Assembly: GCA_951406725.2 (NCBI GenBank)
Contig: OX597824.1
Location: 42,656,001 to 42,720,000, forward strand
DNA from: Octopus vulgaris
Taxonomy: Eukaryota
Direction of reading: 5' to 3'
DNA: 64,000 nucleotides
Positions 2,551-58,600 of the stretch are shown piece by piece; position 1 is the first letter of the stretch; each line of letters opens with the position of its first letter. The notes under the pieces were generated by a model, which saw only the letters and a program-made list of their open reading frames with translations, was not told the DNA's origin and did no database searches. The position numbers and the translations under genes are program-made.

Positions 2551-3156
2551 TTAACAATTGAGGATAAAATCTTTAAAAGAAATTATCAGTAGTCAGCGTG
2601 AAAAACCTCGTAAGAGAAAAAATCCGTAAATTCTTCCTCTTTGAAAATATTCATTTATATTATATTGAGGGTACTACTATTCGTAGATACCAACACGCTA
2701 AGAGGGACCAATGCGGTCAAAACTACTAAAAATAAACAAAATTTTACTGAATGCAAAACTTCAAAACACATCATTTTAAAAAAGAATTCAGTTACATATC
2801 ACATGTGATTTCGCATTTAATGCAGAATATGCATTTCATGTTCGTCAGTGCAACAAACTCAAGAAATATAAGAAAAAACATAACATTACAAACTCGATAG
2901 TCAACCGTAGAATTCGTCGTAGCTTGTACGAATGTTTATCCTTACATATCTATGAAAATGGCGGGCTTTTTCGCAATGCATTTCGGTAACAAATTGCCTA
3001 GTCGGAATAAAAATTCAGTATTGAACTATTCCGGTGAAAAATCTAAATTAACAATTGAGGATAAAATCTTTAAAAGAAATTATCAGTAGTCAGCGTGAAA
3101 AACCTCGTAAAAGAAAAAATCCGTAAATTCTTCCTCTTTGAAAATATTCATTTATA
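2551..3156 (-). mobile_element. Retrozyme-like / non-autonomous Penelope-type element: 497-nt unit plus 109-nt terminal direct repeat, inserted in (TA)n
   Basis: 2551-2659 and 3048-3156 are identical except for one base. Flanked by (TA)n. Internal hammerhead on the minus strand. No coding capacity. Confidence 0.75.
2791..2854 (-). ncRNA. Type I hammerhead ribozyme
   Basis: Minus strand: GTTGCA-CTGACGA-[ACAT..ATGCA TATTC TGCAT..ATGC]-GAAA-TCACATGTGA-TA-TGTAAC. Stem I pairs with one G-U, and stem III is the palindrome ATCACATGTGAT. Confidence 0.75.
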
Positions 3157-3574
3157 AAAATATATATATATATATATATATATATATATATAGAGAGAGA
3201 GAGAGAGAGAGAGAGAGAGAGAGAGAGAGAAAGATAGATACATAGATACATACATACATATATATAAATACACGATATAGATAGGTAGATATACGATGTG
3301 TGTGTGTGTGTGTCTTTGTATCTGTGTTTGTCTCCCACTACCGCTTGACAACTGGTGTTGGTGCGTTTACGTCCCCGTAACTTAGCGGTTCGGCAAAAGA
3401 AACCAATAGAATAAGTACCAGGTTGAGCAAAAAATTAATAAGTACTGGGGTCGATTATCTCCATCCTACAGATTCACGCATACATACACACACACACACG
3501 CGCGCGCCGATGCACATATACCGGTACGCGTTTACGCATAGCTACGTGGTTAAGAAGTTCCCCTACTGAATCGT

Positions 3575-4190
3575 AACATCACCATCGTCCTCATCATAAT
3601 AACCACAACCACCATCATCTTCATCATTTTCATCGTCAACATCATCGTTGTCATCATCGTCATCATCATCATCATCTTCTTCTTCTTCTTCTTCTTCTTC
3701 TTCTTCTTCTTCTTCTTCTTCAAGCGTTTCCGTCGTCGTCGTCGCCATCACCATCATCATCATCATCATCATCATCATCATCATCATCATCATCATCATC
3801 ATCATCATCATCATCATCTTCATTATCATCTTTATGAACTTCTTTATTATCATCTTTTTTCATCGGCGTCGTCATCATTACCATCATCATCTACATCATG
3901 ACGACGACACCACCACCACCACCACCCCAACCATCACCGCCACCATCTTCTTCATCACCAGCATCGTCACCATCATCATCATCATCATAACCATCATCAT
4001 CATCATCATCATCATCATCATCATAACCATCATCATCATCATCATCATCATCATCATCATTACCATCATCATCATCACAATGACCACCACAACCAAACAC
4101 CATCACTATCATCATTATCATCATCACCACCATCACCACCAGTACCACTTTCATCATCATTGTCATCATAGTCATCCCTATCATAATAAC
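3575..4190. repeat. (CAT)n/(CTT)n/(CAC)n trinucleotide low-complexity tract
   Basis: Direct reading. Confidence 0.95.
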
Positions 4191-4379
4191 ATGAAAATTA
4201 CCTTACCCTGCTCCTGCCCAAATGTTATCCACGCCAACCGTCACAAACAGTTCCAGTCTGCTAAAATTAACAGCCAGATATCCCTCAAGTTTCACATTGG
4301 CGCTTTAAATCAATAGAATAAAATAAAATAAAAGGAATGAAAATTACATAATATAGTTTGGGGTATAAAAAGTCGGGAT

Positions 4380-4793
4380 GGTGCAGACGTGTCTGTGCGG
4401 TAAGAAGCTTGCTTCTCAACGATCTAATCACATGGTTTCGGGTTCAGTCCCACTGCATGGCAACTAAAGCATGTGTTTTCTACTATAGCCTCAGGCCACC
4501 CAAAGCCTTGTAAGTGAATCTGGTAGACGGAAATTGAAAGAAACCCGGCGTATATACGTATGTGTGTATCTATGTGTTGTCGTGTGTCTATGGGTCAGTA
4601 TTTGTCCCACCACCACTGCTTGACAATGTTGGTGTATTTACGTCCCCGTAACCTAGCGGTTCGACAAAACAGACCGATAGGATAAGTACCACGCTTTAAA
4701 GAAAGAAAAAGTACTGGAGTCGATTCATTCGACTAAAATTTCAAGACGGTGCCCCAGAATGGCCGCAGTCAAAAGACAAAAACAAGTAAAAAG
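4380..4793 (+). mobile_element. SINE family A, near full length
   Basis: Head, GGGTTCAGTCCCACTG B-box-like segment, internal TG tract and 3' GGTGCCCCAGAATGGCCGCAGTC tail. Confidence 0.88.
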
Positions 4794-55167: not shown

Positions 55168-55281
55168 AAATATATATATATATATATATAATATTATTAG
55201 AGACAAAACCACTATTTTGCAAAACAAACAAGGAAAGACTTAATCAATACATAAAATTTTAATAAAAAGTAAAAAAAACCG

Positions 55282-55324
55282 CCACTACAATTGTTTCTTG
55301 TCCTGATCGACAATCTTCAGGTGG
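55282..55324 (-). ncRNA. Type I hammerhead ribozyme (left arm)
   Basis: Exact reverse complement of 55600-55642. Confidence 0.88.
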
Positions 55325-55599
55325 ACTTCCAATCTAAAATATCAATATTTTAAAATATAAAAATAATAATTTTAAAATAATTAAAGTATTAATGAAAAAA
55401 TATAAATATATAATCTATATATAAATATAAATATAAATATATAATCTATATATAACCTATATATATATATATATAGGTTATATATAGGTTATATATAGGT
55501 TATATATAGATTATATATTTATATTTTTTCATTAATACTTTAATTATTTTAAAATTATTATTTTTATATTTTAAAATATTGATATTTTAGATTGGAAGT

Positions 55600-55642
55600 C
55601 CACCTGAAGATTGTCGATCAGGACAAGAAACAATTGTAGTGG
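55600..55642 (+). ncRNA. Type I hammerhead ribozyme (right arm)
   Basis: CCAC-CTGAAGA-TTGTC GATCAG GACAA-GAAA-CAATTG-TA-GTGG; intact core and palindromic ACAATTGT stem III. Confidence 0.9.
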
Positions 55643-58600
55643 CGGTTTTTTTTACTTTTTATTAAAATTTTATGTATTGATTAAGTCTTTCCTTGTTTGT
55701 TTTGCAAAATAGTGGTTTTGTCTCTAATAATATTATATAATATTTTACTATAAAATTGGATTTAATCCTAAATCTGATTTTTTTCCTGTAAATTTGGATT
55801 TATTCCCTAATATTTATTTTATATATATATATATATATATATATATATATATATATATATGTATGTATATGTATGTATGTATGTATGTATGTATGTATGT
55901 ATGTATATATATATATACATATATCGTATATATATATATATATATCGGTAGATAGATATAGACACACATACACACATATATGTATATATGTGTGTGTATG
56001 TATGTATGTGTGTGTGTGTGAATGTGTGTGTGTTGTGTAACAAACAGTGAAGGCTGACAGTGCTACGAGTCTTTTGATAAGCTACAGGTATGAAGTTTTC
56101 CAGTTGCCGATCGATAATCAATGGCCATGACTTCGTTCGTTACCTCGCTCGTCAAGCTGCACTTCCACAAAGCTCTCTAACTACGCTTGGGATTTTCAAA
56201 AAATACCATCAACCATTCCACCAAATGGAACCGCCTAATAAAATGTAAACCTAACACAAACGGTAGCATAAAATGAAGTTCTGAACTTCAGAAAGGTAGC
56301 TTATTCTGAAGAGCACTTGTTTAAATGCTAAAAGTGAAATTTTGAGTGGCTATACATACACCAACAAGTTCTTTAATAACACTTAATGAAAGATTTATAA
56401 ATTCCTTAGAATTATTAATTTTCATTATTTTCATTATCAATTTTTTTATATAGATTTATATGCCCATGCATGTATATGTATCTTTGTATGTATGGATGGA
56501 TGGATGAATGGACAGATGGATGGATGTATGCATGTATGTATGTACACACATGCATATATGCGTTTGTGTGATTATAATTATATACGTACATCATATATCT
56601 TCTACATATGTGGAAAATCGGTGTATACAAATAATTTTATGTCTTGCAATAATTTTTACTATAATTTTATATAATCTATATTTTATATAAGTTTTATGGA
56701 TTGTTATGCATCATGCATTTTTAGGCATCATTACACTATTTGACGAAGTTATTATTTTTATATGACAGTTTTATATCTTGCTATAATTTTATATTATTTA
56801 TCATCTATATAAGTTTTATGCATTTTTATATTATTACACAAAATTACCCGTCATATAACGGGTAACTTTGGAAGTAAGCTTTTGCTGCCATGAATAATAT
56901 CCTGAAATAGGACGCAAATACAATAATTATAAGTTTTACCAAATTTCTTGGTAATTAATTCTGATTTTCAAAAGAAAAATATTTACCTTATAACTTTTAG
57001 AAAAAGAATATTCAAAATGTAGGAAAAAATTAAAACAATTACTTTTCATGTTGATTACCTTAGGGAACATGACTTTTGTTGTCTGGTGTTAGAGGCATGT
57101 TTTCTAGTAACTTAAGCGAGTTGATATCTAAAATGAAATCCATTTTGCTTTATCGCGTCAATATTTTCAGAAACTCAAATATCCATTTTCCGATATTTCC
57201 AGGATTGTTACCATTTCTAAGAATAGATTTGACGTCATCAAATGCAGAACCGTGCATGAAACTAGACATTACATTGAAAATATAGTTATTAAAAGTGAAA
57301 ACAAAAGACATGGTTCAAGTATTTTCAGTAAATAAAAAGCAAAAATCTTGAGAAATTTTCACTATTTTCAATTAACTAATTTTAAATGTCAGTATGATGA
57401 CAGAAACGTCCTTTATACAATTGATGTTAATAAACAACACATTTCTGTGGTCCTTGACTTCATATATTTCCCACATTTCTGGAATTGTATTTGCCAGCAG
57501 ATATTCCTACGCTGTGCTTGGTTTAGTGTGGCAATCGTTGCAAACCAGGTGGGACACGTTTTGTTGAACCTCTAACTATTTCTTAAGGAAATTTTGAATG
57601 CGCCCTTAATGTTTTAATTGTGAAGTTACATGTGTCAAGGTTACATTTTATCAAGCATGGTCAAAGAACTGTAGAAATGATTTTATTGTATGTATGCTCT
57701 TTATGAACTTTGCCATCACAAATCTGCATTTGCTTACTCTATAATCGTTGAACATTTTGAGAATACTTTTCCCAAGTGACAACTGGCTTGAATATATATT
57801 TTGTTTTTCAGAAATACAATCAGTAAAGAGGTAAGTAAAAAAAAAAAATAGCCCTGATGTGTTCTACTATATTTGTGGATGTTACTCATTACCTAGGCTA
57901 CGAAACAAAATCACAGAAAATCTTGAGGTGATAAAAAATTTCTCAGAGCATTTCTGGACCATCAAATTAGGTTGGACTAAATATAAAAATATCCTCGAAA
58001 ATTTTCACACTCAAACACTCGTCTTCTCAACCTCTCGTTCTCTCTCTCTCTCTCTCTCTCTCTCTCTCTCTCTCTCTCTCTCTCTCTCTCTCTCTCTCTC
58101 TCTCTCTCTCTCTCTCTCTCTCTCTCTCTCTCTCTCTCTCCCTCTCTCTCTCTCTCTCTGTATCAAAGCTATTCATTTTCCCAAATCGCAATTATTCATT
58201 GGTATGAGTGCTTATCTCCAGTCGTCATTGCGTTCAGCTGATCACAGATAATTTCCTTCCTAGATAAATAGATTATGGTTCCTCTCTAAAGTTGGCTGAA
58301 ATTTACGACTGAAAGAATTGAATTCGACCACTCTAGTTCCTCAGTGATGCGGCTATTTACAGCGGCAAGTTATAATTTCCTAACTGTAGTCACCGAAAGC
58401 TGAATGTATTCCAGTGTTGAGTACTTTTAAGTGTTTTGTTGAAAATCAGTCAAAGACAAGATACAAGAGGTTGATATGTACTCGACCATCCGGGATGGAG
58501 AAGCGGAGACAGACAGCGAGTGGGAGAGAAAGAGAGAGGGGGAGACGCAGAGCGGGAGAAAGAGAGAGAGAAGGAAAAGTGACTGTCTCTGCAATTTTAA

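Follow-up and report, generated by a model that had tools for sequence, protein, structure and literature searches.

Hammerhead ribozymes of animal retroelements have been described in Penelope-like elements (PLEs) and in short non-coding elements. The role of PLE hammerheads is described as unclear (PMC8557442), while slow, dimer-dependent processing can be drawn from the relevant passages of PMC4209133 and PMC6765202. For the retrozymes that lack long terminal repeats (non-LTR retrozymes), a study from 2026 argues for a PLE origin and a dependence on PLEs, and reports cleavage of dimers in one of the nine cases tested (10.64898/2026.07.22.740005). Natural variants of the hammerhead core include U4C in a viroid and A6C in a phage, both given as slower in the passages on them (PMC3088659, PMC7151607). 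The annotation of the Octopus vulgaris genome counts 190 PLE families, 31 of them recently active, and ribozymes are unmentioned in the text and supplement searched (PMC13282606). Here, we analyzed a window of 64,000 nucleotides of this 2.8-Gb, microsatellite-rich genome (contig OX597824.1; G000:C11:42656001-42720000), in which a first-pass annotation had listed twelve hammerhead-like motifs and attributed them to a diverse set of retrozyme-like parasites. We conclude, with a probability of roughly 0.8, that these motifs are hammerhead-type ends of RNAs from seven families related to Penelope, of which five represent coding PLEs cut down to their tails and two represent non-coding tandem units, likely mobilized by PLE enzymes, and that one of the coding families has a tRNA-like promoter in its tail and likely makes copies resembling short interspersed elements (SINEs).

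Motifs, families and coding partners

The window was searched with a descriptor combining CUGANGA, GAAA and UH, a stem I of at least 4 bp, a stem II of at least 3 bp with a single bulge or mismatch tolerated at its base, and a self-complementary stem III. It returned exactly the five motifs that had been listed as having intact cores, at the same positions, compared with a mean of 0.005 and a maximum of 1 in 200 local dinucleotide shuffles of the window, and a stricter descriptor kept 2-3 of the five against 0.02-0.04 in the shuffles. As had been proposed, these are minimal PLE-type hammerheads with a palindromic stem III. The seven variant motifs are visible by eye, their window copies being too worn for the descriptor. 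Pairing is kept across the unrelated sequences of the families, a judgement made by eye, and covariation within young families is uninformative at 97-99% identity. When single strands were folded, only copies of families C and E approached the hammerhead fold; homodimers scored below two monomers in all seven sequences, a comparison made without a shuffle control to which we give no weight. Among the 150 of 343 Rfam matches listed for the whole window, nearly all were microsatellite-driven miRNA and none was a hammerhead.

The flanks of the twelve motifs had been taken as mutually unrelated. They instead fall into seven families, A to G, several motifs being arms or units of one insertion: the 55282 and 55600 motifs are the two arms of one perfect 240-nt inverted repeat, the 27003 and 27062 motifs the two arms of a single insertion, and the 46631 and 46773 motifs two units of one tandem (85%), while the 26862 and 55068 motifs belong to one family (77% identity). 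The relic near 41190 represents an eighth family, H (Table 1). In each search 40 copies were scored among hundreds to thousands of first-look candidates in the genome, and all family counts given here are those of top-scoring copies; they come from 29 of 1776 first-look candidates for A and from 14 of 403 for G. Open reading frames (ORFs) with reverse transcriptase (RT) and GIY-YIG were identified, and the clade labels assigned, through motifs and homologues. The composition of the genome and a homologue with 43% identity, which carries a name from Octopus sinensis, agree with an octopus. Pfam matched the ORF of C to RVT_1 only and that of F weakly to RVT_1, with no match for D and E.

The motifs had also been described as non-coding, which fits A and G in the loci seen, whereas B, C, D, E and F continue upstream, elsewhere in the genome, each into its own RT and GIY-YIG ORF. 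These five families are 5'-truncated ends of coding PLEs and show the marks of such elements: a pseudo-LTR (pLTR) or partial tandem, 5' truncation, an inverted 5' segment and a one-sided tail. Among 15 loci anchored on an ORF end, five extend in forward orientation to the B-proximal untranslated region (UTR), and two as far as B. Intact relatives of B, with 727 aa, have a B-like pLTR at either end, and the apparent tail of B is their 5' UTR; a B relative (L320) carries RWK, DKT and CxCX5C, the marks of the Hydra clade. Family D represents the 3' terminus of a Hydra-type PLE whose 3' UTR extends over several kb and whose ORF has a CxCX5C linker. At least 1.5 kb of upstream sequence is common to 9 of 25 D loci, and two of these nine, once extended to 8 kb, reach the ORF: one holds a 590-aa RT and GIY-YIG ORF collinear with the hammerhead end (L123), and the other reaches the end of the nuclease (L119). 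At L123 (oriented 3382-6452) the 3' UTR of D spans 3.7-5.3 kb and contains an internal 1.5-kb duplication, an unusual length for a PLE.

In full elements of E, as in L159, direct pLTRs of ~324 nt surround the ORF, with open frames of up to 610 aa, and the RT of E is 44-48% identical to that of D. Outside the window, we also observed a very young, intact PLE family of 717 aa in tandem and inverted clusters (L259-L288), whose hammerhead shows C4 and, ahead of GAAA, one additional U. For F, ORF-anchored loci show that the upstream sequence leads to a Neptune-type ORF, which in L326 has the CX2-5CxxC linker ahead of GIY-YIG that marks the Neptune clade. A young family with intact ORFs (63 of 63 matches lack stops) ends in the F motif in all 30 fetched loci. 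In H, the motif retains CUGAAGA together with stem II, a long stem I and one additional C, but most of the 16 copies aligned (with that of the window entered twice) have GAUGAUG instead of GAAA...UH. The relics at 28275 and 41190, to which mobilization of the other families had been ascribed, are both true PLE fragments, though not evidently mobilizers of those families, and the one at 28275 is itself family E, together with the 28913 motif. We nevertheless agree that Penelope RT and GIY-YIG enzymes are the likely mobilizer.

The description as retrozyme-like parasites suits A and G, which consist of non-coding tandem units each bearing a type I hammerhead, as in non-LTR retrozymes. The top copies of A are 97-99% identical. 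Sequence records listed no RNA data set containing A, and the four runs compared consist of assembled contigs, which are silent on ends, strand and circles. Tandem arrays occur in 30 of 30 loci (29 distinct), with a 3' end fixed at (TA)n and, in 14 of the 29 distinct loci, a 5' inversion; upstream extension yields a further unit and not an ORF in the loci seen. The cleavage site was considered as the 5' boundary of the arrays and rejected, since there is no pile-up of starts at the predicted cut (unit position 361; 0 of 29 arrays, the nearest at 366 and 374). A single older copy (83%; L099 2214-2467) starts at unit position ~358, adjoining this site. The second motif of the A unit, whose CCGACUA core is fixed in 35 of 38 matches, is probably inactive because it lacks G8. 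Junctions of unit end to unit start occur in 8 of 13 further G loci. The window copy of G lies between tail-to-tail copies of another repeat ending in (AAT)n, which form a large inverted repeat (46126-47244). From these sequence features, A and G are likely non-coding retrozymes moved by PLE enzymes.

Most motifs had been placed in (TA)n. This is the case for A (25/28), B (20/24), F (17/19) and D (22/24), but not for G, found in trinucleotide tracts in 11 of 13 loci, nor for C, which has a non-microsatellite 3' flank (see below). In the window, A, B and F do sit in the internal (TA)n tract of a SINE, as had been noticed. However, the idea that SINE-borne (TA)n tracts act as landing pads finds no support in the ~1.3 Mb of fetched loci that served for this comparison and for the search for coding partners: 25 of 159 PLE-adjacent tracts are SINE-internal, against 61 of 456 other tracts (16% vs 13%, Fisher P=0.51). 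From established PLE biology, the GIY-YIG nuclease would nick the target, and the RT would prime at the nick on tandem or circular RNA, halt early and add the inverted segment. The bulk of these observations, PLE tails in microsatellites, is ordinary. Two features are unusual: the tRNA-like cassette in the 3' UTR of C, and the variant cores fixed in young intact families.

Table 1. Hammerhead-bearing families and their host repeats in the window
Feature	Position	Strand	Description
Family A	2551-3156	-	One 497-nt unit and 109-nt repeat of the unit start; non-coding tandem in (TA)n tract
Hammerhead of A	2791-2854	-	Canonical core CUGA(C/U)GA, A.C mismatch at stem II base, 12-nt palindromic stem III
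Second hammerhead-like motif of A unit	2967-3013	-	Core CCGACUA
Common SINE, 5' half	2285-2451	+	Internal (TA)n tract hosts family A; 3' half at 3332-3456
Common SINE	26525-27330	-	Internal (TA)n/(CA)n tract split by F and B insertions
Family F	26773-26962	-	3' end of Neptune-type PLE; variant hammerhead 26862-26897, core CUGUNGA (A6U)
Family B	26973-27207		pLTR of Hydra-type PLE; inverted arm (motif 27003-27048, -), forward arm (motif 27062-27107, +), ~70-nt tail
Family E	28270-29025	+	Hydra-type PLE with deletion; tail in inverted orientation 28270-28375, part of ORF 28423-28624, motif 28913-28980 in pLTR end, core CCGAAGA in the family
Family H	41552-42750	+	Old PLE relic; GIY-YIG region 41552-41944, 3' half-core motif 42426-42464, GAAA missing in family majority
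Family G	46500-46845	+	Inverted stub and two ~142-nt units in trinucleotide tract; motifs 46631-46669 and 46773-46811, core UUGUNGA (U3, U6)
Family C, tRNA-like head	54037-54112	+	A box 54043-54053, B box 54087-54097; tRNA-Arg best among retrieved tRNAs
Family C, (TAA)n tract (internal) with 3' end of PLE	54113-54412	+	Hammerhead of minimal type at 54276-54321; A9 followed by an additional A; stem III palindrome ACGU
Family F, second copy	55008-55165	+	Motif 55068-55103, CUGUGGA
Family D	55185-55818		Single insertion forming a palindrome; one arm at 55185-55424, the other at 55500-55739, tail as far as ~55818; motif 55282-55324 on -, motif 55600-55642 on +

A tRNA-like cassette in the 3' UTR of family C

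The unit of C consists of a tRNA-like head, a (TAA)n tract and a tail bearing the hammerhead, in this order. One RT and GIY-YIG ORF continues directly into the head (L212), and among 25 loci anchored on the RT of C, this one included, head and tail lie downstream in 19. The distance from the stop codon to the head is 30-31 nt in 13 of the 16 loci measured. No linker motif was seen before GIY-YIG in the ORF pieces of C; from its motifs, this family would belong to the Penelope/Poseidon clade, which has a C-terminal GIY-YIG lacking a Zn-finger linker. Loci anchored on the head have the tail downstream in 24 of 30 cases and an inverted partner upstream in 20 of 30. Inversions occur beside 40 of 64 C heads, in a tally that includes both arms and overlapping loci; the corresponding figures for three further common repeats are 11/108, 0/20 and 6/83. 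Target duplications of at least 8 nt flank 8 of 24 copies, compared with 15 of 552 mismatched control pairs. The 3' end of C is the PLE's own and is followed by a unique, non-microsatellite flank in 28 of 29 copies, rather than being the LINE-shared 3' end (LINE, long interspersed element) or simple tail that marks tRNA-derived SINEs. Hence, (TAA)n lies within the element and does not mark a site of landing. In three loci (L198, L225 and L226), another element ending in this tract parts the head from the tail; it may be a TAA-targeting LINE.

The head aligns locally with tRNA-Arg at z=11.4, the best score among retrieved tRNAs, which spanned six amino acids only. Its A and B boxes, with a spacing of 33 nt, deviate by one mismatch from the consensus that PMC8969392 quotes for SINEs. 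The window copy has no T4 run, and hence no such internal terminator. The 5' starts of head-complete copies are sharply grouped: 27 of 30 are at most 8 nt away from the head, with 11 at exactly 8, and only three lie further. Such a pile-up is far from what smooth truncation would give, with P=8e-6 even for a survival of 50%, and six of the seven complete heads in a set anchored on the tail stop at the same 5' point. Pol III transcripts are expected to start ~14 nt upstream of an A box, which is where this cliff falls. The pile-up would thus represent a Pol III start, as we infer from the sequences: Pol III would start ~8 nt ahead of the cassette, and the RT of the parent would reinsert that RNA. 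In this way the cassette likely spawns short SINE-like copies. Short and ORF-linked tails have the same majority sequence and a similar divergence (4.7% and 5.6%, respectively); the short copies are therefore not a separate lineage. We had considered them as a separate SINE lineage and rejected this, with no diagnostic alleles between 21 short and 18 ORF-linked tails.

Variant cores and the weighing of alternatives

The variant motifs had been regarded as degenerate, but their odd cores are mostly the majority state of their own family. The core is canonical in A, C, D and the window copy of B. Among 65 matches of F, 97% have U and 3% have C at position 6, with A in none, while position 7 is variable; A6U is present in all 30 intact Neptune-type copies. 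All 14 copies of G have both U3 and U6. The U4C change is found in 15 of 16 copies of E and in 29 of 39 old copies of B, and the intact 717-aa family has C4 in 59 of 59 motif matches across 30 loci; U4C is the fixed state of an intact Hydra-type family. Our searches returned no paper on A6U or U4C cores in PLEs; Luense 2017 and Arkhipova 2017, which were outside the reach of the search, may describe core variants. Inserted copies run ~95-250 nt past the predicted cut and, as said above, no A array starts there, so the templates were apparently not cut at their final ribozyme. The most likely role of these ribozymes is, in our analysis, a slow processing of tandem transcripts that depends on dimers: they would act slowly, as dimers formed through the palindromic stem III, and most inserted copies would derive from RNA left uncut at the last ribozyme.

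Taken together, these features suggest a broader interpretation, which we advance tentatively and would put slightly short of even odds. A PLE would have captured a tRNA promoter within its 3' UTR and thereby become the source of a SINE of its own: Pol III would make a sub-genomic RNA of tRNA head, TAA tract and hammerhead end, which the RT and GIY-YIG nuclease of the parent would reinsert without a LINE. In this genome, active Neptune- and Hydra-type PLEs would have spread with A6U and U4C cores, which depart from the textbook consensus, so that PLEs would select for slow cleavage or for a structural role. Several results weigh against the interpretations proposed in this work. Cleavage and transcription are predictions from sequence. 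Rfam recognized neither the tRNA head nor the hammerhead in one copy of C at E<=10, and ARAGORN does not accept the head as a tRNA. An intact ORF of the C parent was not found among 150 matches, the longest open frame having 569 aa. A small hairpin spans the start point of C and could yield the 5' cliff without Pol III, and the divergence of short and ORF-linked tails is similar, as given above. No coding partner of A or G was found in the fetched loci, which cover top-scoring copies. Finally, the intact relatives of B have a canonical core, and the U4C of old B copies may therefore reflect their CpG history.

Some of these results fit an explanation in which C has no SINE-like life: short copies would be truncated PLE RNA, generated by RT stalling or fold-back at the hairpin, and the cassette would be a silent passenger. 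The hairpin is located exactly at the cliff, with a short fold-back there in many copies, long and short copies share alleles and age, and the head no longer scores as a tRNA. However, copies without an inversion end at the same 5' place, the A and B boxes match the SINE consensus at the given spacing, the cliff has the position expected of a Pol III start, and the internal terminator is absent from the window copy. We consider this explanation less probable than SINE-like copying, though a serious competitor.

It is about equally conceivable, and again less probable than not, that the variant cores (A6U, U4C and U3) no longer cleave and are retained as a structure for dimerization or RT recognition. 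Intact, near-identical families differ at core positions that are normally fixed while N7 varies, and their stems and stem III palindrome persist. The insertion ends beyond the predicted cut and the lack of A arrays beginning there agree with this, as does the sharp loss of activity in Mg2+ that the relevant passage reports for A6C (PMC7151607). Yet F keeps GAAA, G5, G8, A9 and UH, one older copy of A starts near the predicted cut, and, in the passages on these variants, U4C supports viroid infectivity and A6C retains low activity (PMC3088659). Slow processing remains our preferred role, and young intact families with A6U or U4C cores are natural test cases for the need of cleavage. Descriptors that fix CUGANGA miss such families, so that genome-wide hammerhead counts would be too low.

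The view that each family is a non-coding retrozyme in its own right, using PLE enzymes and favoring SINE-borne (TA)n, is very improbable: A and G are non-coding tandems in all loci seen, copies of B and F close to the window's sequence are mostly short, and A, B and F lie within SINE tracts in the window, but the links of B, C, D, E and F to RT and GIY-YIG ORFs contradict it for these five families, SINE tracts are not enriched and C does not target microsatellites.

Other repeats and comparison with described elements

Three further repeats were observed in the window. A 165-nt unit is repeated 4.1 times in tandem at 15731-16409 (95% matches), where the descriptors found no hammerhead. A 208-nt direct repeat with 96% identity occupies 13242-13449 and 14839-15046, with 1.6 kb between its copies, and an imperfect tandem array with shifts of ~60 nt lies at 50061-50600.

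The families described here resemble endonuclease-positive (EN+) PLEs in many respects. In the passages of Cervera and De la Pena 2014 (PMC4209133) on their pLTR hammerheads, these have an extra nucleotide after A9, a palindromic stem III and many families per genome; motifs are mostly single, from truncated PLEs, with opposite-strand pairs 100-700 bp apart, as in the window. Their consensus retains U4 and A6, and the rows of Fig. S3 examined have neither C4 nor U6, partly since their descriptor fixed the core; the U3.G8 combination has a precedent there in Saccoglossus. The parts of Craig et al. 2021 (PMC8557442) dealing with PLE clades report partial tandems, inverted 5' copies, a one-sided tail and (TA)n targeting, all found here, and the clade motifs recur as well: RWK, DKT and CxCX5C in the group of B, D and E, and the CX2-5CxxC linker in F. 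The tails differ in length, 70-116 nt here against 30-40 in those passages, which also attribute canonical hammerheads to the Hydra elements; in our set, two families of Hydra type have U4C fixed. The tRNA-like cassette of C has no mention in the passages of that study on PLEs.

Families A and G resemble the metazoan non-LTR retrozymes, which the passages seen of PMC7229834 and of Li, Clavereau and Pollet 2026 (10.64898/2026.07.22.740005) present as non-coding tandems with a type I hammerhead; no cephalopod is mentioned in these passages. They differ from these elements in carrying the full PLE insertion footprint, and G in its U3/U6 core.

Family C bears on the relation between SINEs and their partners. 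SINEs are defined as parasites of LINEs; if our interpretation of C as a SINE-like family formed by a PLE 3' UTR is true, it would show a SINE arising inside its autonomous partner, and PLEs would be a second mobilizer of SINEs. Our literature searches, which did not reach Repbase and Dfam, brought up no publication describing a tRNA cassette within the 3' UTR of a PLE. Ohshima and Okada are said to have described in 1994 the octopus tRNA-derived SINEs OK, OR1 and OR2, with a tRNA-Arg-like head, and C may be among the SINEs already catalogued, its origin from a PLE having gone unnoticed. A parallel is provided by the hammerhead SINEs of Schistosoma, Sm-alpha and Sj-alpha, which, like C, are short retroposons of Pol III type with a hammerhead (PMC6765202). 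In the passages of that study on them, these appear as SINEs in tandem, and a coding parent is not named. Family C is unlike them in being itself the 3' UTR of a coding PLE, in its minimal PLE-type ribozyme and in its PLE inversions.

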